Source: Dehalococcoidia bacterium
GTDB lineage: Bacteria > Chloroflexota > Dehalococcoidia > GIF9 > JAUXIO01
Direction of reading: 5' to 3'
Assembly: GCA_030620975.1 (NCBI GenBank)
Contig: JAUXIO010000003.1
Coordinates: forward strand, 1-53,489
Length of the DNA: 53,489 nucleotides
Shown in pieces: positions 1,905 through 18,703 of this stretch (its first letter is position 1; every line of letters starts with the position of its first letter). Made by a program: the position numbers and the translations under genes. The notes under the pieces were generated by a model, which worked only from the letters and a program-made list of their open reading frames with translations, was not told the origin of the DNA and did no database searches.

Positions 1905-3560
1905 ATGCCCATTAAAGTTTTAGCTCCGGAGATAGCTGGCAAGATCGCCGCCGGCGAGGTGGTGGAGGGGCCGGCTTCGGTGGTGAAGGAGCTGGTAGAG
2001 AACTCGCTGGATGCCGGTGCCAGTCAAGTCAGGATTGAAGCTCAAGGTGGCGGCGTAAGCTCAATTAGGGTAACCGATAACGGGTGTAGTATCCCTTTAG
2101 CAGAAGTTGAGCTCGCCTTCCAACGCCACGCCACCAGTAAAATTGATGAGCTGGCCGACTTAGAGAATATCTCCAGCCTCGGTTTTCGCGGCGAGGCTTT
2201 GCCCAGCATCGCCGCCATGGCCAAGGTGGAAATGCTAACCAAGGCGGCATCAGATGCCGTGGGAAGCTACCTACACCTCAGAGATGGCGCCGTAGTGGAT
2301 AGGGGAAATAGAGCCAGAGTCCAAGGCACCACCATTACCATACACCGACTTTTCCGCCACTTCCCAGCTAGGTTCAAGTTCCTCAAATCGGCAACTACGG
2401 AAAATAGCCACATCGCCCACGTGGTAAGCCGATATGCCCTTGCCTTCCCCGAGGTAAGATTCAGTCTATCTTTAAACGGACGACTGGCATTGCATACCCA
2501 GGGTAATGGCAATTTGCAAGATGTGGTCGCCGAAATCTACGGCTGGGAAATAGCTCAAAATATGCTCAGGATAGCCGGCCTTGACAGCTTCCCCAAAGTT
2601 AGTGGCTTGATAAGCCCGCCATCTTCAAGTCGCTCCAGCCGCTCCTATATTAGCTTCTTTGTCAATCGACGCTGGGTACAAAGTCGCCTGCTAGCCCGAG
2701 CCGTGGAACAAGCTTACCAAGGCCGCCTCATGAGCGATAGGCATCCCATGGCAGTCATTAATATATCGCTGCCACATCAGGAAATTGATGTCAATGTGCA
2801 TCCAACCAAAACTGAAGTGAGATTCCGCGGGGAGCAAGCCATTTTCACTGCCGTGGAGAGAGCGGTAAAAGCGGCGTTGGCCAAAGCGCCCCTACCCAAA
2901 GTTAAAACCATGCTTTCTTACCCCTCGCCAGCTCAAAGTGAAGGGTTATGGACGATGAGAAACGGTGAGCCGACGGCAGCTGATTCCTTACCCATCCTGC
3001 GGGTGATGGGACAGCTGACCAACAGCTATATCATCGCCGAGGGTCCCGAGGGACTTTACCTCATTGATCAGCACGCCGCTCACGAGCGCGTCCTCTACGA
3101 AAAGCTGTTAACCCAGCAGTCGACACGGAAAGTAGAAATCCAAGGCCTACTGGAACCAGTGACCATAGAACTCGGTCCCAAACAAGAGGAGGTTTTAAAA
3201 GCTAGAAGCGAGGCCCTCACCGAGTTCGGCTTCAACATTGAGCCATTCGGTAGCAAGAGTTGCCTAATACGGGCTGCGCCCGCAGTAACGAGCGGAACAA
3301 ACTTGAGGGAAATGATAAGGGCGCTGCTGGATGACCTCGCCGCTGATGAGGCGCCGCTCAAGTGGCAAGAAAAAGTGGCTCAATCCCTAGCCTGCCACAG
3401 CGCCATCAAGGCGGGACAGGCATTAAGCAATGAGGAAATGAGAGAGCTGGTGAAACAACTTGAGCAGACGGCTCTGCCCGGCACCTGCCCCCATGGCAGA
3501 CCGACTATGATTCATCTAAGCTCCCACCAACTGGAAAGGGAATTTGGCAGGCTGGGGTAG
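1905..3560 (+). CDS. mutL: DNA mismatch repair endonuclease MutL (short linker)
   Basis: IAAGEVV, KELVENSLDAGA, HATSKI, LGFRGEALPSI, DVNVHPTKTEV; endonuclease motifs DQHAAHERVLYE, ACH, CPHGRP. Confidence 0.97.
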   Translation: MPIKVLAPEIAGKIAAGEVVEGPASVVKELVENSLDAGASQVRIEAQGGGVSSIRVTDNGCSIPLAEVELAFQRHATSKIDELADLENISSLGFRGEALPSIAAMAKVEMLTKAASDAVGSYLHLRDGAVVDRGNRARVQGTTITIHRLFRHFPARFKFLKSATTENSHIAHVVSRYALAFPEVRFSLSLNGRLALHTQGNGNLQDVVAEIYGWEIAQNMLRIAGLDSFPKVSGLISPPSSSRSSRSYISFFVNRRWVQSRLLARAVEQAYQGRLMSDRHPMAVINISLPHQEIDVNVHPTKTEVRFRGEQAIFTAVERAVKAALAKAPLPKVKTMLSYPSPAQSEGLWTMRNGEPTAADSLPILRVMGQLTNSYIIAEGPEGLYLIDQHAAHERVLYEKLLTQQSTRKVEIQGLLEPVTIELGPKQEEVLKARSEALTEFGFNIEPFGSKSCLIRAAPAVTSGTNLREMIRALLDDLAADEAPLKWQEKVAQSLACHSAIKAGQALSNEEMRELVKQLEQTALPGTCPHGRPTMIHLSSHQLEREFGRLG

Positions 3561-3562
3561 CT

Positions 3563-6109
3563 CTAGGGCAAGCTTGAATCACCCTTATAAATTCCAGTCT
3601 GTTCTCGCAGACATTCATAGAGGGCTTTCCCCTGTTCTTCTAAAATACCGTTTACCTGCCTTAATGCCCTCATATAATCAGAGAATTCCCTCCCCTCTAT
3701 GGCAACATTATAATCTTGAGCTAACCCTCCTACGATGGAGATCATTTCTTCCCTCAACAGTTCATAGAGTTCTTTTCCTTTAATATGGGAAAGTGCTCTG
3801 GCCAAAGCCAAAGATACAGACAAAATGGCATTCATTCCCAGAGTTCCTTTTCTCTGCATTACCAGGACCTGAGCCTCCTCTTTTGCTTCGGGAGATAATT
3901 TTCCGTTTTGAACGGCAGCTTCCCTCTCTAGATCAAGAAGAGTCTTATCTATATCTTTCAACGATAAACTAGCCAGATCTTTCCCCTCAAACTTGGGCGC
4001 AATTATTTTCACAACGTTCTCTGCGGCATTTAAGCAGCCTTTCCCTTCGTATCTCTCGGATTTGATAAAAAGTTGGATTAATTTCTCATCCCCAGTTTCC
4101 CTTACTTGGGATTCACTTACTCCTTTCTTGAACTCATAAGTGGCTTCCTCCACCTTTTGGAACAAATCCGAATGTCTATCTGCAACCTCTTTATATTCTG
4201 CGTATTCAATTAGAGAATCTATCAGGTGTATGGCTTCCCCAGCTCCGGCAGAAGTTCCTAAAGGAGTAGCTCCCCTCTTTTCCAAAATCAACTGCGTTTC
4301 GGGCGAATATACTTGCACCTCTACACCCACGGTAGGTATGCCAGCATTGGTAGGTTCTTCACAAGAAGTAAAATTCCTTATGATGGCCTTTGCTCCTTCC
4401 TTAAGCGAAGTAAGGGCAATGCCTCTTTCCAATTTGTTCATTAAATCGAGAACTTTCTGATATTTAACTAACCTTTCCGTGTTTGCTCCTCCACCCGCTT
4501 TCAAGCCCAAGGCATTGACCGCCAAAGCGATTTGAGCTTCCATATCGTCATTGGGTGATTTGGAGCGGTGAGAGACCACCAATTCCAAATTCTTGCCTAG
4601 AGCCACCAGCACGGCCAGGATCGTCTCATATAAAGTTCCTATTTGATTGGCTTTAATTAAAGCGGTGTTGATTAGGTGTCGGGAGGCAGACATCTCAATC
4701 GTCTTATCATTGGTAGTTACCAAGTCGTCACCAATCACGAGAATTCTATCTCCCAATTCTTCTAAGAGCATCTGCCAGCCCTGGTAGTCGTCCTCAGCAA
4801 AGCCGTCCTCGATAGAGATTATGGGTATCTCATACTCTTGAATGGCTTTCCTATATATTTCCAAAACCTCGTCCCTGCTGAGGATAACCCTGGCCTTATC
4901 TCTCCAGAACAAATATGTACCCACGCTGTCGGGCATGTTGTACTCTTCTCGATAAGCATTCTGTAATTCACTCATCGCGGGATCCAAGGCAATAGCTATA
5001 TCTACTCCCGGTTTATAGCCACATTCCTCTATAGACTGCTTCATCATCGTCCATAATCTTAGTTCAGGTAAAGGATAATCTCCCTTTTCAATGTAAGGAG
5101 CAAGACCTCCTTCCAAGCCTATTCCCATTACGCGGCAACCCTCTCCCTTCTCAATAATCTCCTTTAGACGATTCTGGAGCTTAACCGTCATCTCCTGAGC
5201 CTCTTCGTAATTTGGAGCTCCCAAAATTACGAACATTCCCTCCTGCATGCTTATGTTCGATTCGGGATATTCCTTCTCAGTATGTCTTCCCCCCATGCCG
5301 CAGTTCCTGAATTGCCAAGGGGCTTCCACTCTCCCCAAAGAAGGATGGACTGCTTTCTGAATTCTTTCCTCAAGCATCCGCTGCTTTACGCCCTGGGAGG
5401 CCTGGTACCAATCAGATACCTTTTCTACCATTTCGGCTTTATATTTTGCCTTTTCCTCCCTCTCTCTAAATTTCCTATATTTCCCGGGGTCGGCGATGAA
5501 AAAGTCTAGTAGAGTGACTAGTCCTATTCCTAAACATAATCTCCCTATGTACAGACTTGGTATATAGTTAAAGTGCAAACCGAAGTAGAGGAGCATTATG
5601 GCCAAGGGCAAGGCAAACAAACAAGCATCCCTGCTAGCCTTTGGTCCATTGGCAGCTACTGCCAGATTGTAAGGAGCATCAGGATAGTAATTTAGGCCTT
5701 CCCTCTTTATTCCCAAGGCCTTACCATAAGGAATGAGGATAAACATCTTAGCGTAGTAAAAAATCCTCTTCACAAGGCTCTGATTAAATTTTTGGTTGAA
5801 TCCCTCTTGAGCGCTTCGATTCAAAGCATTGATCCTGCCTGCCTCTAGGAAGTGTCCCATTTCATGGATGGCAATCCCAGCATGGAAGCTTATATACATA
5901 AATAAGGCGGAGATAAAGGTCTCAGGACTTACGAAGATGAATTTTAAGACCTCCGTCTTAAAGACATGGGCTAAGGGCAAAGATAAAACTGAGGAGATGA
6001 AAGCAACATGGAAGGAGACCAAAATATGGTTGGCTAGTACCCAACCTTTTTCTAGGCGAGCGCCATCTTTATATCCTGCTTCCAATTTCTTGTAATTGGG
6101 GGGCTTCAT
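3563..6109 (-). CDS. Fusion of an N-terminal membrane M50/site-2-protease-like domain with a circularly permuted enolase (barrel first, capping domain last)
   Basis: aa 1-210 are hydrophobic with AIHEMGH and VAANGP. aa 262-560 carry enolase barrel motifs (GGRH, QEGM, EGGLAP, ALD, SIEDG, GDDL, LIKANQIGT, SHRS, ERLVKY). aa 574-787 carry enolase N-domain motifs (GIPTVGVEV, PLGTSAG, RYEGKG, LGMNAILSVSLALARA). Confidence 0.9.
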   Translation of the reverse strand: MKPPNYKKLEAGYKDGARLEKGWVLANHILVSFHVAFISSVLSLPLAHVFKTEVLKFIFVSPETFISALFMYISFHAGIAIHEMGHFLEAGRINALNRSAQEGFNQKFNQSLVKRIFYYAKMFILIPYGKALGIKREGLNYYPDAPYNLAVAANGPKASRDACLFALPLAIMLLYFGLHFNYIPSLYIGRLCLGIGLVTLLDFFIADPGKYRKFREREEKAKYKAEMVEKVSDWYQASQGVKQRMLEERIQKAVHPSLGRVEAPWQFRNCGMGGRHTEKEYPESNISMQEGMFVILGAPNYEEAQEMTVKLQNRLKEIIEKGEGCRVMGIGLEGGLAPYIEKGDYPLPELRLWTMMKQSIEECGYKPGVDIAIALDPAMSELQNAYREEYNMPDSVGTYLFWRDKARVILSRDEVLEIYRKAIQEYEIPIISIEDGFAEDDYQGWQMLLEELGDRILVIGDDLVTTNDKTIEMSASRHLINTALIKANQIGTLYETILAVLVALGKNLELVVSHRSKSPNDDMEAQIALAVNALGLKAGGGANTERLVKYQKVLDLMNKLERGIALTSLKEGAKAIIRNFTSCEEPTNAGIPTVGVEVQVYSPETQLILEKRGATPLGTSAGAGEAIHLIDSLIEYAEYKEVADRHSDLFQKVEEATYEFKKGVSESQVRETGDEKLIQLFIKSERYEGKGCLNAAENVVKIIAPKFEGKDLASLSLKDIDKTLLDLEREAAVQNGKLSPEAKEEAQVLVMQRKGTLGMNAILSVSLALARALSHIKGKELYELLREEMISIVGGLAQDYNVAIEGREFSDYMRALRQVNGILEEQGKALYECLREQTGIYKGDSSLP

Positions 6110-6130
6110 TACGACCAGCTAACTATAGGC

Positions 6131-6160
6131 ATTCTAACACGACCCTAACTTCTGGGACAA
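6131..6160 (-). promoter_or_regulatory. sigma70-type promoter for the enolase-fusion gene
   Basis: Minus strand TTGTCC-18 bp-TAGAAT with TGn extension, 21 bp upstream of the ATG. Confidence 0.45.
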
Positions 6161-6185
6161 GCTGCTGCAAGGTGAGTCAGTTACT

Positions 6186-6941
6186 TCAAAGCTTCAGCTT
6201 GTCAGCTATTTCCCTTACCCCCAGTTGAAGAGGGGAATCTGGAGGTAACTGGATTAGAGGAATCCCCTTCACTTCCAAGTCAGCAAGGTTTGGATCCTCG
6301 AGAATGGTGGCGATGAGATGAAGCCCAAGACCATCAGCAGCCTCCTTTATTTCCCGAGGAGGCCCGCCTTTAACTCGGTTAATCATTAAATAAACCCCCC
6401 CAACCTTAGTTCTCAACTCTTGAATAAGTTCTTTCATGGCTGCAGCAGCAGTAATACCCCGCACCGTGGGGTCAGAAATGGTGAGCAAGACATCTATGTC
6501 TCCCGCCGTCTGCCGACTGATATGCTCCATGCCAGCTTCGCAATCAATGACCACATAGTCATAATTCCGAGTGAGGCGACCTATAGAAAGACGAAGCATG
6601 TGATTGGCAGCACAGTAACAGCCCGGTCCCTCAGGGCGCCCCATTGTTAACAGGTCGACCTTATCCGATTCAACCAGGGTTGCTCTTATTCTTCCCTGCA
6701 GAATGTCTTGCATAGGCACCCCGGTAGGAAGGCTCTGCTTTTGAATATCTTTGACCATCTCCTCACGCACTCCACCCACGGTGCCTTCAAGTGGCAGACC
6801 CAAAGCCAGATTAAGATTGGCACTAGGGTCGGCATCAACGGCTAGAACTATGCCCTTCTGCGAAAGCAAGTCTATAAGCAAGGCGGCAATTATGGTCTTC
6901 CCAACACCACCTTTCCCAGCAATAGCAATCGCGGTCGTCAT
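6186..6941 (-). CDS. cooC: CODH/ACS nickel-insertion ATPase (CooC/AcsF family)
   Basis: GKGGVGKT, DADP, MGRPEGPGCYC nickel-binding CxC, DCEAGMEHISR; lies in the ACS cluster. Confidence 0.92.
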   Translation of the reverse strand: MTTAIAIAGKGGVGKTIIAALLIDLLSQKGIVLAVDADPSANLNLALGLPLEGTVGGVREEMVKDIQKQSLPTGVPMQDILQGRIRATLVESDKVDLLTMGRPEGPGCYCAANHMLRLSIGRLTRNYDYVVIDCEAGMEHISRQTAGDIDVLLTISDPTVRGITAAAAMKELIQELRTKVGGVYLMINRVKGGPPREIKEAADGLGLHLIATILEDPNLADLEVKGIPLIQLPPDSPLQLGVREIADKLKL

Positions 6942-6949
6942 TTAGGCGC

Positions 6950-8863
6950 TTAGCCTCCAGCTTCCTTAGGGCTACTTGCCTCCGATGGAGGCAGTAAACT
7001 TATCGGCGATAGCTTTATGACGGCACTGTACTCAGAGGGACACATCTCAAGGCAGGTGCCACACTTAGTGCATTTGCTCTGGTCGATGACTTTTATCCCC
7101 TTTTCATTACTGGTGATGGCTTTAGGTGAGCAGGCCAAAATGCAATGCTCGCAGGCCCTGTCACACTTCTCGGGAAGAATATAATAAGCAGTAAGCTCCT
7201 TACACACCAAAGCGGGACAGCGCTTCTCGCGAATATGGGCCTCATACTCATCGCGAAAATAGCGAATGGTAGTTAGAACTGGATTGGGCGCAGTTTTACC
7301 CAAGTTACACAGCGAGCCCATCTTAATGTCCTCGGCCAACTCAAAGAGCAAATCGATGTCTTCAATTCTGCCCTTGCCGGCGGCAATGCCTTCCAAAATA
7401 TCCAGCATCTGCTTTGTGCCCAAACGACACAAAGTGCACTTACCACAAGACTCTTTCTGAATGAAGTCGAGGAAAAAGCGGGCGGTATCCACCATACAGT
7501 TGTCCTCATCCATAACAATCATGCCCCCCGAACCCATCATTACCCCCACCTCAATCAGCGAGTCAAAATCGACTGGGGTATCCAGCAAACTCTCAGGCAG
7601 ACAACCGCCCGATGGTCCACCAATTTGCACCGCTTTCAAAGCCTTACCCTCAGGTACGCCGCCACCGATATCAAAAATGAGCTCACGCAAAGTTGTACCC
7701 ATGGGCACTTCGGCCAAGCCGGTATTAACCAGCTTGCCAGCCAAAGCAAACACTGCCGTGCCTTTACTTCTCTCCGTGCCCATAGCAGAAAACCAATCTG
7801 CGCCGCAATTAATTATTAGCGGGATGTAAGCAAGGGTCTTCACATTATTTATCACGGTGGGCTTATCCCACAGTCCAGCCTCCGCGGGATAAGGCGGTCT
7901 CGGTCTGGGAACGCTCCGCTTGCCCTCAATAGCCTGCATTAACGCCGTCTCCTCACCAGAGACGAAGGCGCCAGCACCCAGTGCCAACCTTATATGGAAA
8001 TTGAAACCGCTGCCCAAGATATTATCCCCCAAAAAGCCCAGCTCTTCCGCTTGCTTTAAGGCAATTCCCAAACGCTCAATAGCTAAGGGATACTCGGCGC
8101 GGATATAAATATAGCCCTGAGAGGCACCCAGCGCATAACCGCCGATGAGCATACCCTCAAGAACCTCATGCGGGTCACTCTCCAAAATTACCCGGTCCAT
8201 AAAAGCACCAGGGTCTCCCTCATCGGCATTGCAAATCACATATTTGGGCTCAACCAAGGCATTGCGGCAGACCTGCCACTTCTCCCCGGTGGGAAAGCCA
8301 GCACCACCCCGACCACGCAACCCCGACCTTTTTACCTCCTCAATTACCTCTCCTTGGGGCATTCTCAAGGCTTTAACCAAACCCGCATAGCCGCCGCTGG
8401 CAATATAATGGTTTATATCCTCTGGGTTAACATAGCCGCAATGGCGCAAGAGCAGGCGTCTTTCGCGCTCAAACCTGAGTAACTCTGGAATATAAACGGC
8501 TTCGCCATCACCGCCTTCGACAGCCCCCAAAGCCAATTCCAGACAGGGGTCATCACCCAGAATATAACCTTCAACCAAGCGAGAAACAACTTCGGGGGTA
8601 ACCTTACCATAGCAAACGCGGAAGGAATCCGGCTTAATTATTACTACCAGGGGCTCGGCATAGCAAAGTCCCATGCAGCCAACTTGGGTGATATTAGCCT
8701 CGGCATTTTGCCGCCGAAGTTCCTCTCTGAAGGCTTCAACTACAGCTAACGCTCCGGCAGCTCTGCCACAGGTGGCGGTGCCGATAAGAATATTGGGCAC
8801 TTCGCCATGGTAAAGGGACTTCCATTGTGATACCGCTCGACTTTTAATTTGCTCAAAGGTCAC
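6950..8863 (-). CDS. NuoF/HydB-like FMN- and NADH-binding Fe-S flavoprotein, long bifurcating-type architecture
   Basis: N-terminal thioredoxin-like Fe-S domain (TCG...GCMGLC), SGLRGRGGAGFPTG, CNADEGDPGAFMDR, GGPSGG, ESCGKCTLCR, C-terminal 2x[4Fe-4S] domain. Confidence 0.92.
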   Translation of the reverse strand: MTFEQIKSRAVSQWKSLYHGEVPNILIGTATCGRAAGALAVVEAFREELRRQNAEANITQVGCMGLCYAEPLVVIIKPDSFRVCYGKVTPEVVSRLVEGYILGDDPCLELALGAVEGGDGEAVYIPELLRFERERRLLLRHCGYVNPEDINHYIASGGYAGLVKALRMPQGEVIEEVKRSGLRGRGGAGFPTGEKWQVCRNALVEPKYVICNADEGDPGAFMDRVILESDPHEVLEGMLIGGYALGASQGYIYIRAEYPLAIERLGIALKQAEELGFLGDNILGSGFNFHIRLALGAGAFVSGEETALMQAIEGKRSVPRPRPPYPAEAGLWDKPTVINNVKTLAYIPLIINCGADWFSAMGTERSKGTAVFALAGKLVNTGLAEVPMGTTLRELIFDIGGGVPEGKALKAVQIGGPSGGCLPESLLDTPVDFDSLIEVGVMMGSGGMIVMDEDNCMVDTARFFLDFIQKESCGKCTLCRLGTKQMLDILEGIAAGKGRIEDIDLLFELAEDIKMGSLCNLGKTAPNPVLTTIRYFRDEYEAHIREKRCPALVCKELTAYYILPEKCDRACEHCILACSPKAITSNEKGIKVIDQSKCTKCGTCLEMCPSEYSAVIKLSPISLLPPSEASSPKEAGG

Positions 8864-8868
8864 TAAAG

Positions 8869-9354
8869 TTAATCGCCCTTGTTTGCTTCTTGAATTTCAG
8901 ACTTTATGGTCGTCAGAACTTCCACCACCTTCCAGGGCGTCATTTTGGGGTAAACGGCATCACCAATTACCATTGCCGGAGCTATAGCACAGCAACCAAT
9001 GCAGGCTACCCTATCCAGGCTGAACTCGCCATCGGAAGTGAGCCCTCCCAAATCAACATCCAATTCCCTTTGCACCGCCTCCAGAACAAGCTCGCCACCG
9101 CTTAAATGACAAGCAGTCCCCATACATACTTTGATAGGGCGCCTTCCCAGAGGGGTAATCCGAAATTGGTTGTAGAAAGTAGCCACGCTGTAAACTAAAC
9201 TTTCTGGAATCTGCAAAAATTTAGCAACGCCGAGCATTGCCTCCTTAGGAAGATAGCCAAACTCAGCTTGAACTTCCTGAAGGATGGCAATCAAATCACC
9301 TCGACCGTCTCCCTGCGCCCTCAGAATCCTGGTTAATCCTTCTGCTACTTCCAC
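8869..9354 (-). CDS. NuoE/HydC-like [2Fe-2S] subunit
   Basis: GYLP, VATFY, VCMGTACH, VACIGCC. Confidence 0.92.
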   Translation of the reverse strand: MEVAEGLTRILRAQGDGRGDLIAILQEVQAEFGYLPKEAMLGVAKFLQIPESLVYSVATFYNQFRITPLGRRPIKVCMGTACHLSGGELVLEAVQRELDVDLGGLTSDGEFSLDRVACIGCCAIAPAMVIGDAVYPKMTPWKVVEVLTTIKSEIQEANKGD

Positions 9355-10709
9355 TTCTTTACAAGCTCCGGTAGAAAGGCTGGTATATCACTGGCTTCTC
9401 TGGGACCTACTATAACCTCCCAGCCTGACATGGCTTCCTCAAGTTCACCTCTGATTCTGGCTACTTTCCCCGGAATAACTAATCGCCTGTGGTTCACCTT
9501 GGCCTCAATGCCACATCTCTTAATAAATGGTTCAATGGTATCGGCGGAAAACTTGCCAGCCGCCCAAGCGGTGACCACACCAAGCCCTTCCGAATTCTTC
9601 ACGCAAAGCCATGACGGAACCTTACTTGCTTCCGTCTCCGAGGAGACGATGAAGTAAGTTAATGACCAGTTCGTAGTAAGTAGAACCGGAGACTGCTCAT
9701 TGGGTTCATTTATCTCATAGACCTTCTCCTCTACTGCCAGAGGCATCCGAGGGTCAGTATAAATATTGAGCCGCTGAACTAGCAGCGGCAGCAAAGAATA
9801 TTGGTCCGCATTGGAAATAACGATAATTCCCGCATACTTAATTATAAATACCGAGGCTGCAACAAATTCCTTCAGTTCCCCTTTAGTCATAAAACAGGGG
9901 AGGGCGATAGTGGGATAACCAAGGGGTCTAAATTTCTGCTTCAAGGCCGCTCTGCGCAGCAACGTCTGAGCCGCTATAGCCTCACGAAGGTTTCCGGAAC
10001 CGGGATCCAGAACTATCTCCTCAATGCCAGCTTCTTTCAATTTGAGGGTAAGCGGGACAAGCTGCTCTACAGTCTCTGCCCTAACCCCCACCGGCGTCGG
10101 TGATTGTTTAATTCGGGGAATAGCCCGGTCAATATTTTCTTCGGTTATGGGGTAGATTAATGGTTTTCTAGAGGCATATATGTCTCTCGCCTCAAAAAGG
10201 GCATCTAAATCGTCCGAGATTAAAACAACTCCGAGGTCAGTGGCTTCATAGGCCCTCCTCACCAAAGCCTCAAACTTAGACTTATCCCCGGATTCAAAGT
10301 ACAAAGCTAGAAGATCCGCCTTGAGGGTCAAGCCCACCCTATCAAACCGCAGCTCTCTTACTTTGTTTATCTTTCGCTCAATGCTCGCCTCAGTCTCCTC
10401 ATCAGACACGAGCAGGGCAATGCCAGGCTGATGAATGAAAGTCTTTTCGTGCCTATACAGCACCTCTTCATTGCCAATTTGCAGGGCATTTTCACCGTGC
10501 CCTATGGTCACCAAGTTAATCGGAGGTGCCAAGGCATCAGCCAGTTCAGCTTTAACCTGGGGGGAAATATAGGGACACTTATCAAGAGATATGCCTCCCG
10601 AAGCTAGCTTCATGGCGAAAGCAAAACAGGTGGGCAAGCCGCATTCCCTGCAGTTCTTCTTACCCCCCTCGGGTAACTTCTTTACAATATCAGTCCCTTT
10701 GATTGACAT
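9345..10709 (-). CDS. acsC: Corrinoid iron-sulfur protein large subunit (AcsC/CdhE, gamma)
   Basis: NCRECGLPTCFAFA...CP [4Fe-4S] motif, VLYRHEKTF, RLNIYTDP, TAWAAGKF, VGPREASDIP. Confidence 0.95.
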   Translation of the reverse strand: MSIKGTDIVKKLPEGGKKNCRECGLPTCFAFAMKLASGGISLDKCPYISPQVKAELADALAPPINLVTIGHGENALQIGNEEVLYRHEKTFIHQPGIALLVSDEETEASIERKINKVRELRFDRVGLTLKADLLALYFESGDKSKFEALVRRAYEATDLGVVLISDDLDALFEARDIYASRKPLIYPITEENIDRAIPRIKQSPTPVGVRAETVEQLVPLTLKLKEAGIEEIVLDPGSGNLREAIAAQTLLRRAALKQKFRPLGYPTIALPCFMTKGELKEFVAASVFIIKYAGIIVISNADQYSLLPLLVQRLNIYTDPRMPLAVEEKVYEINEPNEQSPVLLTTNWSLTYFIVSSETEASKVPSWLCVKNSEGLGVVTAWAAGKFSADTIEPFIKRCGIEAKVNHRRLVIPGKVARIRGELEEAMSGWEVIVGPREASDIPAFLPELVKKWK

Positions 10710-10733
10710 AACAATCCAAGTTTATGTCCTCAG

Positions 10734-11957
10734 CTATGGCAACTCCACTTCGCCTCTCAGCCAAGGGTGTCCCACCTTATCCACAAACTCAACGAGCTCA
10801 TCGGTATTGGTAGCATTTTCTTCCGTGGCTATTTTGTCATATAAATTTTCTGGAATAACATCCCTATATCTTTCTTTTATCTCCTTGGGCATCCACATCA
10901 CCCGGTATAGACCACCGTCCGCCCTCAGGAACTTGGGAGAGCGCATGTATTCTAATGCCATTCCCAAAGAGCCCTCTGCCTGCCTGCCGCCGCCGGTATT
11001 CCCCGCCATAGTAGAAAAAGAAGCTCCAATTGGCGTCTTACCAGCAAAGTCTCTGTGCACTACCCCAAATCCATCTACTTCGGGAATGTAAAAACAAATA
11101 GACTGGAAGCAACCACAAGAAGTATGAGGATGCTCAAAGGCGCTATGAAGATAAACTCGGTTATACTGACCTAATGACCTTTCAGCAATTACCTGATTTG
11201 CCCCGCTGTATTCCCCTTTTACCGGGTCCAAAAGCTCACCCTTGGGTACCTCAAAAATGGGGCCCTCAGGGTCAAGTTGATAAGCAGCTCTACCATCAAA
11301 CCAATTTATAGCCCCACATAATGAAAGGCGTTCTGGAGTTATAATGCAGGCATGAGTGGGCGCAAAACTCTGACACAGCACACAGCCATAAAACTGGTCT
11401 ACATCCTCCTCCCTCAAGCCCTTCAGCCTCTCATCCCTGGCATGGTAAACTTCCAAAGCATGGGGTAGAAGTTCCTGCACACGCTTTTCATCGGTAATGA
11501 AGGTTATGGCAACTCTCTCGATGACTGATAACTCCGAGGTATAAAGAAAAATGAGAATTTTGCCGAAGTCCCTTAAAGATTTTAGCCCCATTTTATAAGC
11601 ATCTTTACTTAATCTGACCCAGGCATCTTCTCTCTGATTCATATGGTAAAGTCCTTGGATATAATTGGTATACATATGTATTCTTCTCTCAATTACCGGC
11701 TCTGTTTCCTTCTCCAGCCTCTCACCGGCGACATCAATCAAAATGGCTAAAGGATAGCTACCTCCCTCCTCCAATTCAAATATGTCGGGGCCGATAACCT
11801 CTATTCTTCCATGCTCAACTTCAGCAGGGCTATTCAAGGTTACCAACTCAAACTTGCTTTTCGCTTTCGGTCCACCAAACTCAACGTACAAGTCCGCTTT
11901 CCTTATCACATCACCTTCATATTGAGGTCCAATATCCACCGGAAAAGCTTCTGTCAT
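10734..11957 (-). CDS. cdhC: Acetyl-CoA synthase, short archaeal-type beta subunit (CdhC)
   Basis: 407 aa with no bacterial N-terminal domain; FPVDIGPQYEG start; A-cluster ligands intact (GCVLCQSFAPTH, LCGAI, HTSCGCF). Confidence 0.95.
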   Translation of the reverse strand: MTEAFPVDIGPQYEGDVIRKADLYVEFGGPKAKSKFELVTLNSPAEVEHGRIEVIGPDIFELEEGGSYPLAILIDVAGERLEKETEPVIERRIHMYTNYIQGLYHMNQREDAWVRLSKDAYKMGLKSLRDFGKILIFLYTSELSVIERVAITFITDEKRVQELLPHALEVYHARDERLKGLREEDVDQFYGCVLCQSFAPTHACIITPERLSLCGAINWFDGRAAYQLDPEGPIFEVPKGELLDPVKGEYSGANQVIAERSLGQYNRVYLHSAFEHPHTSCGCFQSICFYIPEVDGFGVVHRDFAGKTPIGASFSTMAGNTGGGRQAEGSLGMALEYMRSPKFLRADGGLYRVMWMPKEIKERYRDVIPENLYDKIATEENATNTDELVEFVDKVGHPWLRGEVELP

Positions 11958-12021
11958 TTCTTGCTCCTTATCCCTAAATTAGTTACCAAACTTGATTAAA
12001 AGCCCAATAATCTCTATCAAT

Positions 12022-13359
12022 TTAGTGTACTACATCTTCCAATGACGCCTTGGATGGATAGGTGCCGATCAAAGTGGGCAGGCTTAAAGTCGGTTTTTCT
12101 TCCCAACCCACAGTAGGGAGGTAACTCATTACTTCCTTCTTAAAGAAGATGGGTATATCTGCAGTTCTCCTGACATATAAGTGGAGGTCATCGGGAAGAC
12201 CCTCAGCATATCGCTTATATAAAGAGATATAATGATTTAACTTTATCTGCCTTCCCTGCGGAGTATCATTCTTCCTGATACACAACTTGGCAATGCTAAC
12301 CATCGCCTCTTCCTTCGAATTGGCGACGCAAGCCAGATGCTGTGGCGATGGCTCCTTGGTATCTATAAGCTCTCCCTTCCTTCCATCCATTACCATCCAA
12401 TCGCTATCTCGCTTCTGGCTTAGATAGAGTCTCGCATATTGAGCTGGGCCTACCATCGTTGGAATCCCGTATCTGCTAAATCCAGCGGCTATGGGCAAAG
12501 CCTCTTGGGGCAGAGTTCCCCAAGCCACCCCACAAGCGCCAACTCGGCTAAAAACATAATCAGCTATCACTTCATAATTTGCCCGAACTGGTAATGAAGC
12601 AAATATCATGGCTATTTTTATCAAGGCTGCGGAGATGCGGCAACTCAGCATATAGTCACCAATATTAATTACTCCACCAAGGTTCAATGCCGATGAATAT
12701 TTATCGGTGACTACTACAATATATTTTCTCCGCACCAAGTCCTGTACCATCTCAAGCACGGGTTTAATGTCCTCGGCTAAATCAGAGCAACCGACAAAAG
12801 CAACAATGCCCGGTATGGCACCCATTACCAGAGGCGCCCCAACCGACCTTATGGTCACATCCTGCACCGGGCCATGCTCAGTGCTCGGCTCAAATGTAGT
12901 CTGGGCAATGTCAGCTGCTTCCATAACTACGTGGTCCAACATCCCGGCGTGAAGTGCCCCGGATTCACACTCTAAAGAGCTCGCTTCCAAATTGACAGAC
13001 TCAAGCCGACTGCATTGCCCCTCTGCGTAGTCAATCACTTTGCTTAAGTCATTCAAGCTCTCCGGCCTGAGTCCCACAACGGTTTTTATGTTTGGAGCTT
13101 CCACATCAAGTTCGTGGTCCTCACCATGCTTATCAACATAATTGCCAACAACCCCCCTGGCATAATCAATATGGGTGCGAAGACCCCTGACGCAGATGTT
13201 CATTACCACCCCGGCTGATACCGACGGCGCATAAGATGGCCTATAGATTTTGAAAAGCCTCATGTCCCAATTTCTCAAATCTGGGATTTCAGGCATCGGT
13301 GTTGGCCCCACCGGTTCCCAGGCGTCAGTAGCTCTTATAATTTCAGCTTTATTATCCAC
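12022..13359 (-). CDS. cdhA: Degenerate, internally deleted archaeal-type CO dehydrogenase alpha subunit (CdhA-like), probably non-catalytic
   Basis: CdhA signatures GPTPMP..DLRNWD, HAGMLDH.MEAADIAQ, IRSVGAPLVMGAIPGIVAFVGC, IADY..SRVGACGVAWG, AKLCIR.ND..GR.IKL.HY. Only 445 aa against about 780-800 for typical CdhA, with the Cys-rich segments absent. No frameshift or internal stop; start overlaps the acsD stop. Confidence 0.85.
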   Translation of the reverse strand: MDNKAEIIRATDAWEPVGPTPMPEIPDLRNWDMRLFKIYRPSYAPSVSAGVVMNICVRGLRTHIDYARGVVGNYVDKHGEDHELDVEAPNIKTVVGLRPESLNDLSKVIDYAEGQCSRLESVNLEASSLECESGALHAGMLDHVVMEAADIAQTTFEPSTEHGPVQDVTIRSVGAPLVMGAIPGIVAFVGCSDLAEDIKPVLEMVQDLVRRKYIVVVTDKYSSALNLGGVINIGDYMLSCRISAALIKIAMIFASLPVRANYEVIADYVFSRVGACGVAWGTLPQEALPIAAGFSRYGIPTMVGPAQYARLYLSQKRDSDWMVMDGRKGELIDTKEPSPQHLACVANSKEEAMVSIAKLCIRKNDTPQGRQIKLNHYISLYKRYAEGLPDDLHLYVRRTADIPIFFKKEVMSYLPTVGWEEKPTLSLPTLIGTYPSKASLEDVVH

Positions 13360-14254
13360 TTACTATCTCCTTCACCAACTTATAGCTTTCAGGATGTCTT
13401 AGAACCAAAATGTTAGCTCCAGCTAAAAGCAAAGAGGTAGCGGTTATCGCTTCCCAAAGTATCCCCTGCTCCCTACCCGCCTTCGCTTCCTTCGTCTTCC
13501 AGCATTCCCCGCCCAAGTTAGCAATAATGGGCATCTGCATCATCCCGTCTTTGAAAATTACGGCGAGCTGCTTTGCCCTCTCTATGATAGTAAAACTATA
13601 TTCCATACCATATCCCAACCCTGAACTTACAGGATCAATGACAATCTTATTCGCGGGAAAGGACTTACAAAGTTTTATATTTAGCTCCTTCATCAAATTG
13701 ATATCTACGGGGCTTTGAGCAATTACAGAATGCCCGTGTTCCAAAGCCACCTTACCTATCTCCTCATAGTTTTCCTTTAGCAGCGGGCCTAGAAGGAGAT
13801 TCTCGCTATCACACACCTCAGCAACTTTACTTAGTACCCGAACATCCGCCTTCTCATCTCCAGTGCCATAAACTATTAGGGGCACATCTAAAGCATCATT
13901 CACTTTCTTAACCAGCGCCGCTGCCTGCTCTGCAGACACAGCTTCCCCCGCCGGGTCAGTGCTCTCCAGTTGAAGGCAAATAGCCTCGGCACCAAAATCA
14001 TTCACGCATTTTCTTGCCCAGTTTACGGGGTCAGAGACCACTTCGCCGAAGGGCTCAAGCAGCCAATCAGGCCAGTCTGCTGGTTCCACATCATAGACTT
14101 CCAAGGCGAACCGCGGTGGATTGGCCACCGACCCCTCAAAAAGGTGAAGGGGAAGAATATTCTCCCCACCGATTTTTAAGGCTTTGTTTCCCCTCCCCAA
14201 CACCACCTCTCTAACTCTCCCAGCATAGACTTCAATTGGAGGATGATATATCAT
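13352..14254 (-). CDS. acsD: Corrinoid iron-sulfur protein small subunit (AcsD/CdhD, delta)
   Basis: KIGGENILP, ALEVYD, DINLMKELN, IVIDP..GLGYGMEYS, WEAITA, LRHP. ATG at 14254 chosen because GGAGGT lies upstream. Confidence 0.94.
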   Translation of the reverse strand: MIYHPPIEVYAGRVREVVLGRGNKALKIGGENILPLHLFEGSVANPPRFALEVYDVEPADWPDWLLEPFGEVVSDPVNWARKCVNDFGAEAICLQLESTDPAGEAVSAEQAAALVKKVNDALDVPLIVYGTGDEKADVRVLSKVAEVCDSENLLLGPLLKENYEEIGKVALEHGHSVIAQSPVDINLMKELNIKLCKSFPANKIVIDPVSSGLGYGMEYSFTIIERAKQLAVIFKDGMMQMPIIANLGGECWKTKEAKAGREQGILWEAITATSLLLAGANILVLRHPESYKLVKEIVSG

Positions 14255-14256
14255 TC

Positions 14257-15138
14257 TTAGACCTCCAGCCAAGCGTGGGAGTAAATCTCCCCTCCCATGA
14301 GCACTCTGGCGGTCTTCACATAATCTCGTTCCTTTTGTGAAAGACCGGAAAGTTCTAGATTCTCCTCATCCATTACCCCATAAATGAGGTCGACGATATT
14401 GGGCAATTCTCCCCTATTCAACCTTATAAGCTCCTCATCCAAGGCATCAGCAATTACAGAATACTGACCAGACTTGGCCAGCATTACCATATAAGTGCGA
14501 TTGAGAATCCCTCTGAGCGGCTGTGGCGTCCCATTAGATACATTTGAAAGTCCTATTACTGATTTAACGCCGGGCAGCAACTCAGGCAATATTTTAACGA
14601 ATTCCAAAACCTCCATAACCTGCCTTTGGTCAACGCTGACTGGCAGAAGGATGGGATCAACCCAAATGTCCTCGTTGGGAATACCCAGTTCATTGGCATA
14701 AGTAACCGTATCTATAATGCTCTCTATCCTTGAATCCACATCGGGAGGGCAGCCAATGTCGGTAAGCACTGAAATAACGACATCTATAGAATATTTTTTG
14801 GCCAAAGGCAGCATTAACTCTTTACTATCAGTCCTTCCTGAAGCTGAATTAAGCAAAGGCCTCTTTTTACAAAGTTTGAGGCCTGCCTCCATAGCTATAT
14901 GATTCATGGTATCCAAAGACAGAGGTAGATCGCTAGCCTCCTGAACCGTATTAACTAGCCACTGCATCACCTCCGCCGGGTTCTTGCGCGCTGGACCGAG
15001 GTTTAAATCTATATAGTCAACATCAACCTGAGCTAAAGCTAACTCTTGTATATGTTGAGGCTCTCTCTTATACATGGCCTCGCTAACCGCTTTAGAAATA
15101 ATGTGTATATTTTCACCAATGATAATCACTAAAATCAA
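14257..15138 (-). CDS. acsE: Methyltetrahydrofolate:corrinoid/Fe-S protein methyltransferase (pterin-binding barrel)
   Basis: IIGENIH, DYIDLNLGP, LPLSLDT, LLNS, WVDP, GLSNVSNG; cluster context. Start may be GTG at 15129. Confidence 0.9.
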   Translation of the reverse strand: MILVIIIGENIHIISKAVSEAMYKREPQHIQELALAQVDVDYIDLNLGPARKNPAEVMQWLVNTVQEASDLPLSLDTMNHIAMEAGLKLCKKRPLLNSASGRTDSKELMLPLAKKYSIDVVISVLTDIGCPPDVDSRIESIIDTVTYANELGIPNEDIWVDPILLPVSVDQRQVMEVLEFVKILPELLPGVKSVIGLSNVSNGTPQPLRGILNRTYMVMLAKSGQYSVIADALDEELIRLNRGELPNIVDLIYGVMDEENLELSGLSQKERDYVKTARVLMGGEIYSHAWLEV

Positions 15139-15668
15139 ATCCTGGGTGAAATAGATGGGTCAGGAGAGCGGATTTCCATAATTAAGAATCTATATCCCTT
15201 AACGATAACCTCTCGGCAAGGAGTAAATCCGCATTTTTCAAAGCATTTCTGCGCCCTTATATTCCAATCTAGGGTCTTAAGGTAAATTCTCTTTAACTTT
15301 GTGGTGGCAAAATTATGATTCAGCAAAGTAATCACTGCATCAGCACCATAACCTTTATCCCAGTAAGCCCGCTCGCCAATCATAATACCCAGCTCTGCCT
15401 CTCCTTCACCTTCATCTATATCAAAATAACCACAGTTGCCAATGTGCTCTCCATCCAGAGTCTCAATAGCAAAACGGCATTGTCCTCGCAGGGGATGGTT
15501 TAATTCTTCAGCATATATCTTCAAATATTCCTCGAAGGAACAAACCAAGGCCGGGGCCGCATCTAAACTGCTTAACTCGGGGTCTACTCGCCAAGCATAA
15601 TCGTTAGCAGCATCAGCCAATTTCTTTTGGCGCAGCCTCACTTTCTGCACGTTTAACAATTGGCACAT
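15135..15668 (-). CDS. GNAT N-acetyltransferase, RimJ/RimL type
   Basis: AELGIMIGE, YWDKGYG, NIRAQKCFEKCGF. Confidence 0.88.
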   Translation of the reverse strand: MCQLLNVQKVRLRQKKLADAANDYAWRVDPELSSLDAAPALVCSFEEYLKIYAEELNHPLRGQCRFAIETLDGEHIGNCGYFDIDEGEGEAELGIMIGERAYWDKGYGADAVITLLNHNFATTKLKRIYLKTLDWNIRAQKCFEKCGFTPCREVIVKGYRFLIMEIRSPDPSISPRI

Positions 15669-15671
15669 CAG

Positions 15672-16604
15672 CTAAAGCTCAAATAAATAAGGGTCTTCCC
15701 AAAACTCCAGTTCACTTAATGCCGCCTCGGCAGCCTGGCGAACCGGGTCACGAAAATCTTCCAATAGAGAGTAAAGAGTTTGCTTAGCTTCTGCTCCGCC
15801 TATTTCCCCAAGCGCTTTTATGGCCGCCTGTTGAACTTCAATATCTTCATCATGAACAAGATTAATAAGATGAGGTACTGCCTCCCTGGCTCCCAGTTCA
15901 CCACAGGCTGCGGCTGCCTCAAAAAGCATTTCAGCGTCTTCGCTATCCAGTTCCTTTATAAGAATAGGCAACCATAACCGATCACAATTGCGCCCCATGG
16001 CATACAAAGCGCTAATTTTAAGTCTAATGTCACCGCTCTGATAAGCTTGCTCAAGGAGTTCTGTTACCCGAGGTGAGTTGAAGGAGGCAATTGCTTCTAA
16101 GGCACGACGTTTCACTTCAGCTAACTCGGCCTCGTCTTCAAGAACTGTCAATAAAGCTGAAAAAACTCTAGCGGCCTGATTAGAAGGCAATTTCCCCAGC
16201 TCAGCCAATAAGGCAAACTTGCCCAAGGCAATGGCCGCAGCAACTCGAACATTTCCAGCATCATCCTCCCTCAATAGTCGAAACAGAGGAGAAACCAAGG
16301 AGTAATTCTCCGCCAAAGCTAACCCATTAACGGCCTGAGCTCTAACAACTTCGCTGGCGTCTCGAAGACAAATGGTAAAGATACCATCAAAGTTAAGTTC
16401 AAGGTTATCTTCAGCGAGCTCAACGAGCCGAGAAGTAAGCTGACACCGACGCTTTAGCTCCGTTTTAATCCAAGCTTTTTCAAAAAGCTCCAGCTCCTCG
16501 TCTGCTAAGTTGGATAAACATACTAATTTAGAATTGACTAACGGTTCCCCCAAATCAGAGATTCCAGCGAGCCGTTCCGTAAAGGAAGCGAAATCCCGTT
16601 CCAT
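15672..16604 (-). CDS. HEAT/PBS-lyase repeat protein
   Basis: Repeated D.d.eVR.aAa.ALG units (VRAQAVNGL, VRVAAAIALG, VQQAAIKALGEIG, VRQAAEAAL). Confidence 0.88.
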   Translation of the reverse strand: MERDFASFTERLAGISDLGEPLVNSKLVCLSNLADEELELFEKAWIKTELKRRCQLTSRLVELAEDNLELNFDGIFTICLRDASEVVRAQAVNGLALAENYSLVSPLFRLLREDDAGNVRVAAAIALGKFALLAELGKLPSNQAARVFSALLTVLEDEAELAEVKRRALEAIASFNSPRVTELLEQAYQSGDIRLKISALYAMGRNCDRLWLPILIKELDSEDAEMLFEAAAACGELGAREAVPHLINLVHDEDIEVQQAAIKALGEIGGAEAKQTLYSLLEDFRDPVRQAAEAALSELEFWEDPYLFEL

Positions 16605-17390
16605 CTAGTTGATCTCCTCCTCCCCCCGCTCCCAAATGGGCTCGGTGAAATGCCCAATAAATTCGCTCATAGCCTCGGCGGCTAACTTCTTCATTTCCTC
16701 ATCTGCCTGTTTAGCCAAGCTGGTAAGTTCAGTAAGATCGATCTCGATTCCAAGCACCTCAGTTAGAACTCTAAGGATAGCCAGAGAGGCTTTGGGATTG
16801 GCTACCCGCATGGCATATGTCGGCACCTCGCCCAGTAAACAAATACCCTCGATGCCCCGCTCTTTAGCTACCCCTAAAAACAATCCATTTAACCCAACAA
16901 TATGAAACTTCCCGCGGAAAACAACTTTATACTTCCTTAGACTCTCAATCAACTTATGATCCGTGGCTACTGCCCAAACTTTTGGCTCCTCGGTGTGATG
17001 AATCCGACTTAAGGCAGCAGCACAAGTGTATATTCTCCCCACTTTGAGCTTCTCCCCAACATCCAAAATGCAATTGGCCAACTCGTAGACTTTCAAATCG
17101 GGTTGCTGCTCACAAATAAACAAAGCTATGTCTCGCCCGGAGCCGGCATTCTGCCAGTAATAGAACTTGCCCGCGGGAAAGTTTGGAGCTTCAATTACGT
17201 CATCTTCAACCATCACGCCAGTTGGTTCAAAAAAACTGGGAGAGTCAATCTCACCTATTTCTTCAGCACCTAGTTTGTCTTTGATATAATTAGCAACGAT
17301 TAAAGAAACATTTCCAATGCCGGGCCAGGCAGCAATCATAGAACAAGCCTTGGGGTGTGGCTTCTTGTAAATTCTAACTGCACCTTTCAC
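16605..17390 (-). CDS. PAC2 (proteasome assembly chaperone) family protein
   Basis: AAWPGIGNVS, IVGLNGLFLG.AKERGIEGICLLGE, NPKAS, C-terminal coiled coil. Confidence 0.85.
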   Translation of the reverse strand: MKGAVRIYKKPHPKACSMIAAWPGIGNVSLIVANYIKDKLGAEEIGEIDSPSFFEPTGVMVEDDVIEAPNFPAGKFYYWQNAGSGRDIALFICEQQPDLKVYELANCILDVGEKLKVGRIYTCAAALSRIHHTEEPKVWAVATDHKLIESLRKYKVVFRGKFHIVGLNGLFLGVAKERGIEGICLLGEVPTYAMRVANPKASLAILRVLTEVLGIEIDLTELTSLAKQADEEMKKLAAEAMSEFIGHFTEPIWERGEEEIN

Positions 17391-17395
17391 GTTTG

Positions 17396-18703
17396 TTATC
17401 CCCCCTTTGTCCCCAATGACAAGTTAGAGCAATAAAGATAGGGAAGCCGTAAAACCCCACCAACCCACCGCGATTCTCGCCCCACAGCCACAATCCGCTC
17501 TAGGGCTTCATAAACGTTCCCCGACACCATAGTATCCTTTACCCGCCCCACTATCTCCCCGCCTTTTACCCTGTAGCCCAACAAAGCATTACCACTAAAG
17601 TCGCCAGCAAGCAAATTGCCTTGCTCGGCACCCATGAGTTCCTCAACAATTAAGCCTTCCTTCATATCCGCTACCATGTCTTGGAGGGATACATCTCCCT
17701 CGCCCACTATTAGAGAGCTTGTGCCGGGGCCGGGTAAACCGCCGCGAGCCCGAATGCCACTACCGGTACTCCGCATATTAGCTAAGGCCGCCGTTTGCAA
17801 GTCATATAAGAAATTCGATACCACCCCCTCACCAACCAGCAGCGTAGATTGGCTTGGCACTCCCTCATCATCACAAGGGCGACTGGCGACATGATAGGGC
17901 AAAATGGCATTATCCCATAACGAAAATTTTTTATCAAAAACCCTCTCCCCTAACTTGCCTCTCAGAGGTGATGCACCTTCAAGCACCATTTTGCCATTAA
18001 AGGCGGTGACCAAGGGGGCCACTAAAGCGCTAGCTACCCCACGCGGAGTAAAGATTACCGGTGATGACCCGGTTGATGCGGTAGCCTTACTCCCAGCTAG
18101 TTCTAGCTGCTTAATCACTCTATCGGCTACAACATTAAAATCAACTAAAGGATGACAGGAACTTTCACCATCGCCGACAAAAAGCATATCAGTATCATGA
18201 ACAACCAAGCCTTCCAAGTTTAGAGATGAGAGGCTTTTGCAATAACTCGCTTCCCCGCCTTTGGAGTTGAGGATATTAAAGAAGACAACTTCTTTGGTTA
18301 CGTCTGCTTCACAAAGAATGTCAGGAGTATGCTCTCTCACCCTGGCCACAAGGCGCCCACCAAGCTCTACCATCTTTTCCACAGCCAACTTGTCTGTCTC
18401 GGGATCAAATACCTCAACTTGAGGATAAGCCGCTGAAGCTGGAAAACTGAAATTGGCCGGGGCGCCAAACTGAGATGTATCTAATGCCATGTCAAGCAAA
18501 GTTTGGGCATTGACACAGCCAGTAGCTACCGAAAAGCCAATCCTGCCCTGCTTAATAATTCGCAAAGCGATGCTGACATGCTGTTTATTCTGAATTTGTT
18601 TCAGATGATTAGCTTCAAAATGAACAAGCGTTCTTTCTGAAGAGACCCGGAAAACTTCAGCTTCATCAGCTAACTCTCTAGCTTTAACTAAAAGTTGCTC
18701 CAC
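17396..18703 (-). CDS. pmbA: TldE/PmbA family protein
   Basis: PCDDEGVP, FLYDLQTAA, GDFSG, GRVKDTMVSGN; no HExxxH motif; coupled to tldD. Confidence 0.88.
   Translation of the reverse strand: MEQLLVKARELADEAEVFRVSSERTLVHFEANHLKQIQNKQHVSIALRIIKQGRIGFSVATGCVNAQTLLDMALDTSQFGAPANFSFPASAAYPQVEVFDPETDKLAVEKMVELGGRLVARVREHTPDILCEADVTKEVVFFNILNSKGGEASYCKSLSSLNLEGLVVHDTDMLFVGDGESSCHPLVDFNVVADRVIKQLELAGSKATASTGSSPVIFTPRGVASALVAPLVTAFNGKMVLEGASPLRGKLGERVFDKKFSLWDNAILPYHVASRPCDDEGVPSQSTLLVGEGVVSNFLYDLQTAALANMRSTGSGIRARGGLPGPGTSSLIVGEGDVSLQDMVADMKEGLIVEELMGAEQGNLLAGDFSGNALLGYRVKGGEIVGRVKDTMVSGNVYEALERIVAVGRESRWVGGVLRLPYLYCSNLSLGTKGG

Follow-up and report, generated by a model that had tools for sequence, protein, structure and literature searches.

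A circularly permuted enolase fused to a membrane domain, and its possible replacement of the canonical enzyme in a Dehalococcoidia genome

The window analyzed here is a stretch of 53,489 nucleotides, positions 1 to 53,489 of contig JAUXIO010000003.1, from the 1.02 Mb, 71-contig metagenome-type assembly of a Dehalococcoidia bacterium (GCA_030620975.1). Its minus strand carries an open reading frame (ORF; 3563..6109, 848 aa plus stop, covered over its full length by homologues) whose sequence identifies it as an enolase of reversed domain order fused to a membrane domain. To our knowledge, few enzymes are as conserved or as thoroughly studied as enolase, and the order of capping domain followed by barrel is treated as universal. 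We consider it fairly likely, with a probability of roughly 60%, that the protein works as an active enolase tethered to the membrane and has taken the place of the canonical enzyme in this genome. In domain content the gene belongs to a short branch without pyruvate phosphate dikinase (PPDK) parts; the long form of the same family adds PPDK-like phosphotransfer domains.

The reversed order is apparent from several profile searches. In a Pfam scan of the translated ORF, Enolase_C (PF00113) matches aa 272-561 (E = 5.4e-54) and is followed by Enolase_N (PF03952) at aa 590-730 (E = 1.1e-14; 55.1 bits against a cut-off of 35), such that the barrel lies ahead of the cap in one reading frame and the capping domain is not N-terminal to the barrel. 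The NCBIfam eno model (TIGR01060) is matched in the same permuted order, with model positions 142-413 coming first and positions 40-96 and 99-134 after them. A phmmer search of the PDB retrieved 67 enolase sequences, the best being that of Bacillus subtilis (4a3r), and its E-value of 2.8e-47 places the enolase match far above chance. On this basis the TIM-barrel domain was delimited at aa 262-561 (4427..5326, minus strand, as for all parts of the ORF given below) from the Enolase_C match and the alignment to 4a3r, and the capping domain at aa 574-787 (3749..4390) from the Enolase_N match and the lid serine S620. The inter-domain linker at aa 562-573 (4391..4426) is the new junction made by the permutation. 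An initial annotation, made from the sequence alone, had placed a circularly permuted enolase with a complete active site at 3749-5326, which is exactly aa 262-787 of this ORF, and had expected PF00113 to precede PF03952, as it does. The linker of about 13 aa that it described is present, but its length comes to ~12-30 aa depending on where the cap is taken to begin, and varies across the family.

The set of active-site residues is complete. The translation holds GGRH276, Q289-E290, E333, D376, E434-D435, D461, K486, H514-R515-S516, K537, S620, RYEGKG and LGMNAILSVSLALARA, each at the residue number first assigned to it, and in alignments to 4a3r and to the canonical enolase of a relative's genome the residues H276, Q289/E290, E333, D376, E434, D461, K486, H514-R515-S516 and K537 fall on enolase catalytic or ligand residues. 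By this correspondence E333 is the general acid, D376, E434 and D461 are the magnesium ligands, K486 is the general base, and H514, R515 and S516 form the phosphate site. The PLGTS620AG segment was mapped by motif to the lid loop, using what we take to be the yeast enolase numbering. Conservation was counted over 227 family sequences of at least 780 aa, and each of 14 enolase catalytic or ligand positions is kept in 219-225 of them (the barrel residues in 221-225, S620 in 219). Departures are confined to N-terminally truncated fragments and to one small divergent group, the representative proteins P0162 and P0163, where nearly all of the catalytic residues have changed jointly, along with E83 of the HExxH motif described below; P0162 and P0163 look like pseudo-enzymes derived from the permuted-enolase family.

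Canonical enolase (Eno; TIGR01060; 4a3r) and the window's protein share both Pfam domains, the base lysine, the acid glutamate, the three magnesium ligands, the His-Arg-Ser triad, Lys537 and the lid serine, whereas the order is cap-then-barrel in the former and barrel-then-cap in the latter. In BLASTP comparisons with the canonical enolase of a relative's genome the barrel is 33% identical across 298 columns, and the high-scoring segment of the capping domain aligns to canonical residues 66-142. Compared with canonical enolase, the cap is enlarged by ~50 residues at aa 633-683 and by another insert near aa 730-750. Beyond these cap inserts, the window's protein adds a four-helix HExxH membrane domain and a 60-aa tail, its H276-Q289 loop is 5 residues longer, and it has SHRSKSPND in place of SHRSGETED. 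A charged linker (aa 211-261; 5327..5479) with 14 K/R and 10 D/E joins the membrane domain to the barrel, and the C-terminal tail (aa 788-848; 3566..3748) contains conserved R835 and Y841; in long-form relatives the equivalent of this tail runs on into a middle region of ~690 aa and PPDK-like domains. Enzymes of the MR/MLE type within the enolase superfamily likewise combine a capping domain and a barrel and perform metal-assisted enolate chemistry. They too are cap-first, and the window's protein matches enolase proper; MR_MLE_C gave one sub-threshold match, in one homologue. The initial interpretation of the enolase part is thus supported in domain order and active site but was incomplete, as the 210-aa N-terminal membrane domain, the 60-aa C-terminal tail and the long-form family were not mentioned in it.

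The strongest support for that interpretation comes from the rest of the genome, where the suggested check for a canonical eno returned none: within this 94.65%-complete genome, TIGR01060 finds only ORF 3563-6109. Canonical eno is present in 39 of 40 order-level relatives, none of which has a second, permuted-type match. In all eight relatives examined, eno lies between orthologues of two genes found here on contig C14 (17918-18466 and 16845-17831), and in the window's genome these two genes lie next to each other with 87 bp between them, on a contig that runs through without any N (16845-18466). Because the genes that flank eno in 8/8 relatives adjoin here on an unbroken contig, the conserved locus is intact but empty, and we interpret the ancestral eno as deleted from it, not merely left unassembled. 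As read from the sequences, one of the flanking genes is MBL-fold hydrolase-like and the other resembles a small Rossmann-type protein.

The neighboring pathway steps are represented in the genome, which holds PGK, two apgM-type phosphoglycerate mutases and an 819-aa PPDK_N-containing frame that we take to be a phosphoenolpyruvate (PEP) synthase/PPDK. With genes of these three types present, the step between 2-phosphoglycerate (2-PG) and PEP is needed, and the permuted protein appears to be the organism's only enolase. One of the two mutase genes lies within the window (38330-39427, plus strand); it is of the cofactor-independent type and scores 470 bits to NF003242, and it scores equally to a "proposed homoserine kinase" model. 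The second copy is located beside pgk on contig C60. The permuted gene has a GC content of 0.441, within the lowest 2.9% of genome windows, and none of 250 further genomes sampled from its class was found to carry it; as both of these observations fit horizontal transfer, the gene was probably acquired in that way.

Canonical eno was checked in 25 carriers of the permuted gene, and a second, separate lineage in another phylum, WOR-3, shows that the two genes are complementary there as well. Among 121 WOR-3 genomes sampled, the permuted gene occurs in 11, five of which lack canonical eno, whereas 106 of the 110 non-carriers have it in full, three have fragments at contig ends and one has nothing. 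Four further WOR-3 carriers also lack it (five were tested, of which G046 is also in the 121-genome sample); these genomes are interrelated, and the counts are therefore not independent. Among five WOR-3 carriers without canonical eno (G045-G049), PGK is present in four and PPDK-sized genes in all five, and pyruvate kinase (PF00224) was found in 0/5, PPDK-sized genes taking its place. In a Dehalococcoidales genome, a GTP-dependent PEP carboxykinase lies ~220 bp downstream of the short-form gene on the same strand (L010, 10742-12526), which we count in favor of a role at the 2-PG/PEP step.

We therefore suggest the following mode of action, in which the activity, the fold, the topology and the role of the HExxH domain are inferred. 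The enzyme would interconvert 2-PG and PEP despite its permuted domain order. Its four-helix N-terminal domain, with a membrane-embedded HExxH site, would anchor the protein in the membrane, and the charged linker would position the barrel in the cytoplasm, where the C-terminal cap may fold back over it and bring S620 together with the barrel residues into the usual two-Mg2+ active site. Once the canonical enolase had been deleted from the ancestral locus, the permuted enolase would have taken over as the step between phosphoglycerate mutase and PEP synthase, both in gluconeogenesis and in the lower part of glycolysis.

A number of observations weigh against this proposal. The TIGR01060 score of 241.4 bits is under the equivalog cut-off of 300; a linear model cannot fully score a permuted protein. 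The SHRSKSPND segment beside the phosphate site is family-specific, and either it or the lengthened H276-Q289 loop could alter specificity. The genome is ~5% incomplete, so that a relocated canonical eno is possible. Canonical eno is kept in all seven long-form genomes tested and in both other Dehalococcoidia carriers tested (G043 and G044), and in four WOR-3 genomes (G104, G174, G070 and G094) the permuted gene adjoins canonical eno on the same contig. In two of these, G104 (L113, 2950-7061) and G174 (L114, 2682-6710), canonical eno starts 20 and 96 bp downstream, respectively, on the same strand, in what looks like an operon of two enolases. Because long-form, Dehalococcoidia and some WOR-3 carriers retain canonical eno, the family is no plain duplicate of Eno in function, and its primary role may be a different one. 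A purely glycolytic function also leaves the obligate fusion to an HExxH membrane domain unaccounted for, and glycolytic enolase activity alone may not be the whole function of the family.

The protein is no isolated oddity. Of 8,000 candidates scored in a word-indexed search, 968 proteins reached E ≤ 1e-3, and the best 120 of these 968 all have both enolase Pfam domains, at 65-100% query coverage and 48-96% identity, with barrel-then-cap order in every one that was rescanned; among full-length homologues one is 96% identical and hundreds are 52-67% identical. When one genome per species was scanned, relatives were found to be encoded in 245 species genomes, which answers the proposed search for homologues of the same order. 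From these carriers 80 loci were kept, spanning Acidobacteriota, Aminicenantes, Planctomycetota, Gammaproteobacteria, Myxococcota, Gemmatimonadota, Thermodesulfobacteriota, Chloroflexota (Dehalococcoidia), WOR-3 and others, and all 80 are from metagenome-assembled genomes (MAGs). Source databases label the family proteins "enolase" or "hypothetical protein", and the literature that could be searched in full text, which leaves subscription journals outside, held no description of a permuted, membrane-fused or PPDK-fused enolase, in agreement with the initial statement that no characterised natural permutant was known. The permuted, membrane-fused enolase is thus a family-level discovery, and that all carriers found are uncultured MAGs may be why it went unnoticed.

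Across many phyla, at least 245 species genomes encode a natural permutant that keeps an intact active site and is permanently joined to an HExxH membrane domain. At least two lineages that carry it have no detectable canonical enolase, and comparative genomics suggests that the permuted protein substitutes for it there. Pathway reconstructions that call enolase missing in such genomes may be wrong; under the NCBIfam equivalog model, this protein falls short of the cut-off. The family also offers a natural test case for the circular permutation of a two-domain enzyme, and its fusions of ~2,050 aa with PPDK-like domains point to undescribed PEP handling at the membrane.

The N-terminal membrane domain (aa 1-210; 5480..6109) was recognized from hydropathy, invariant residues and profile searches. 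It has four strong hydrophobic segments (approximately aa 23-50, 54-82, 158-183 and 185-209) and K/R-rich flanks at both ends, a pattern that would place both termini of the domain, and with them the enolase, on the cytoplasmic side (N-in/C-in). The HExxH motif (H82-E83-M-G-H86; 5852..5866) is located at the inner end of the second segment. H28, H34, H76, H82-E83-xx-H86, D202 and D207 are invariant in family alignments, and across the 227 sequences H82 and H86 are kept in 219 and E83 in 215. A profile of the domain, searched against 1.84 billion representative proteins, found only 142 clusters, all of them family members or fragments and no canonical M50 protein among them. Nine of the hits (835-2,561 aa, the three weakest included) were rescanned and all nine have an enolase barrel after the membrane domain; one short hit (360 aa) gave no Pfam match. 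Because the profile finds only family members and the rescanned long hits all contain the barrel, we regard the membrane domain and the permuted enolase as an obligate pair. Two giant proteins, P0133 (6,041 aa) and P0194 (4,136 aa), contain the same membrane domain internally, and in P0120 there is a weak HD-domain match N-terminal to an internal membrane domain.

The closest known likeness of this domain is to Peptidase M50, the site-2 proteases, with which it shares an HExxH inside a hydrophobic helix and, as far as can be judged from reading the sequences, a GP-containing segment followed by an LD-containing helix in the same order. Peptidase_M50 (PF02163) matches at 14.2-16.5 bits, under its gathering cut-off of 27.2, and although 30 of 37 family N-terminal domains match it at E ≤ 0.1 (best 6.8e-5), none reaches the gathering score. 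Protein-language-model neighbors of the N-terminal part of a homologue are all M50 clusters (score 0.88, which we treat as a lead only). Profile-profile comparison (hhalign, local and global) with seven small M50 proteins aligned at most 21 columns around HExxH, the HExxH helix alone, at a probability of 3%; D202 and D207 are conserved, with no alignment to the M50 LDG obtained, and the membrane-domain profile had 0 matches in the PDB at E ≤ 10. The domain is thus M50-like in an unproven sense, and the role of the HExxH site is left unexplained under every reading considered here.

One such reading is that the enolase module is a metabolite sensor, binding 2-PG or PEP with or without turnover and gating proteolysis by the site-2-protease-like HExxH site, any glycolytic activity being incidental. 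The cytoplasmic CBS domains of some M50 proteases offer an analogy. The near-invariance of HExxH and of D202/D207, the recurrent if sub-threshold M50 matches, the M50 language-model neighbors, the observation that among the proteins examined the membrane domain never occurs without the enolase module, and the retention of canonical eno by most carriers all speak for a sensor. The M50 relationship itself, however, never reaches the gathering score, is confined to the HExxH columns in profile-profile alignment and finds nothing in the PDB. A pure sensor, moreover, needs no invariant general acid, general base and metal ligands, and the loss of canonical eno only where the permuted gene is present would be left unexplained. 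As the catalytic residues are fully retained and the gene-loss pattern is as described, this reading is weakened, and we regard it as unlikely.

The long form of the family bears on two further readings. In 49 of 72 classified loci the ORF extends to ~2,020-2,300 aa (~2,050 aa in the majority form), with the enolase module followed by ~690 aa without known relatives and then by a PPDK-like region. The C-terminal ~500 aa of this form match PPDK residues 10-342 (ATP-grasp) and 415-515 (phosphohistidine swivel) with an E-value of 8e-72. Relative to PPDK (1kbl / 9pzl), the ATP-grasp nucleotide domain and the phosphohistidine swivel with its catalytic histidine, invariant within GGSTSHAA, are common to the long forms only, whereas the PEP/pyruvate TIM barrel (PEP-utilizers_C) is missing in them; the long forms add the permuted enolase, the ~690-aa region and the membrane domain, and the window's protein has no PPDK part. 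In four loci the C-terminal PPDK-like module is a separate downstream ORF, and in P0175, from a divergent branch, PPDK_N lies N-terminal to the same enolase module. The short forms, comprising the window's sequence, two from Dehalococcoidales and eight from WOR-3, are split from the long-form clade at 100% local support (FastTree, no bootstrap). The tree left out L019 and seven loci without the N-terminal trimming motif (L025, L029, L043, L054, L063, L065 and L073); the long-form alignment comprised 49 of 50 ORFs of at least 2,000 aa, and alignments A2 and A3 took every second locus, with 37 and 25 sequences.

It is conceivable, although we doubt it, that the family is a bifunctional membrane machine in which an active enolase is coupled to a metal-dependent intramembrane site, be it a protease or a site of other chemistry, and in most phyla also to a PPDK-type ATP/AMP phosphohistidine relay that lacks a PEP barrel of its own, with the enolase site doubling as the PEP-binding site. 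Were this true, nucleotides would be phosphorylated at the membrane at the expense of 2-PG, with PEP as the intermediate, or else intramembrane proteolysis would be controlled by glycolytic flux, and the window's short form would be the minimal core, also performing the housekeeping role of enolase.

Rather improbable, in our assessment, is the alternative that the module natively handles PEP for a phosphotransfer machine, of which the long form would be an example, and that the short form is a remnant that works with a partner or on a related 2-phospho-acid. The predominance of the ~2,050-aa fusion, the strong PPDK match with its invariant histidine and without PEP-utilizers_C, and the loci with a separate downstream module are in line with this alternative, and P0175 implies that the association arose or was kept in two arrangements. 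Protein and hidden Markov model searches of the window's genome, on the other hand, found neither the middle region nor the PPDK-like module, the only match being a marginal one (E = 0.0065) to the genome's own PPDK_N-containing gene on contig C43. The fully supported split indicates that the short form is a stable lineage and no fresh truncation, and it is in short-form genomes that canonical eno is lost. A phosphotransfer role probably fits the long form better than the window's short form, for which we continue to favor an active enolase in place of the canonical one.

Contigs from public sequencing runs of marine-sediment and cold-seep studies contain the window's gene. A 4,640-nt contig of run X1 covers positions 3300-6400, and run X2, which belongs to another study, yielded a contig of 1,949 nt that covers 3743-5691, both crossing the barrel-cap junction (nt 4387-4432), so that the aa 560-575 junction at which the initial annotation feared a chimeric join is bridged in two studies. 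That two enolase pieces were misjoined in the wrong order by assembly, or that the gene is a pseudogene, would be suggested only by the unusual order and the 71-contig metagenome-type source, and is effectively refuted by these independent contigs and the 245 carrier genomes of many phyla, along with an open frame and family alignments of 60% mean column identity. Contigs of RNA library X17 cover a relative of ~92% identity and hence carry no evidence on transcription of the window's gene itself.

Neighboring genes are variable across the family; no neighbor is common to all of it, and the largest neighbor cluster comprises 10 loci. A role in defense was rejected, as PADLOC gave 0 hits for short and long forms alike. 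Upstream of the permuted enolase in the window, on the same strand, lies a Wood-Ljungdahl-type (CODH/ACS) cluster (6186-20061, minus strand) with genes for a CooC/MinD-like ATPase, NuoF-like and NuoE-like proteins, CdhD, CdhC/ACS beta, a prismane/CODH-like protein, a second CdhD and a pterin-binding protein; it is not common to other carrier loci and was treated as coincidental. In six WOR-3 loci (L075, L076, L077, L079, L080 and L083) the downstream gene encodes an M48 metallopeptidase with a C-terminal zinc ribbon, followed in five of the six by an endonuclease III-like gene. Finally, in a Dehalococcoidia MAG a 1,666-aa open frame (L019, 8070-13070) contains two near-identical short-form modules, with the membrane domain duplicated and partial and with GMGGKH in place of GMGGRH, reflecting either a genuine duplication in tandem or a repeat that was collapsed or expanded in assembly.

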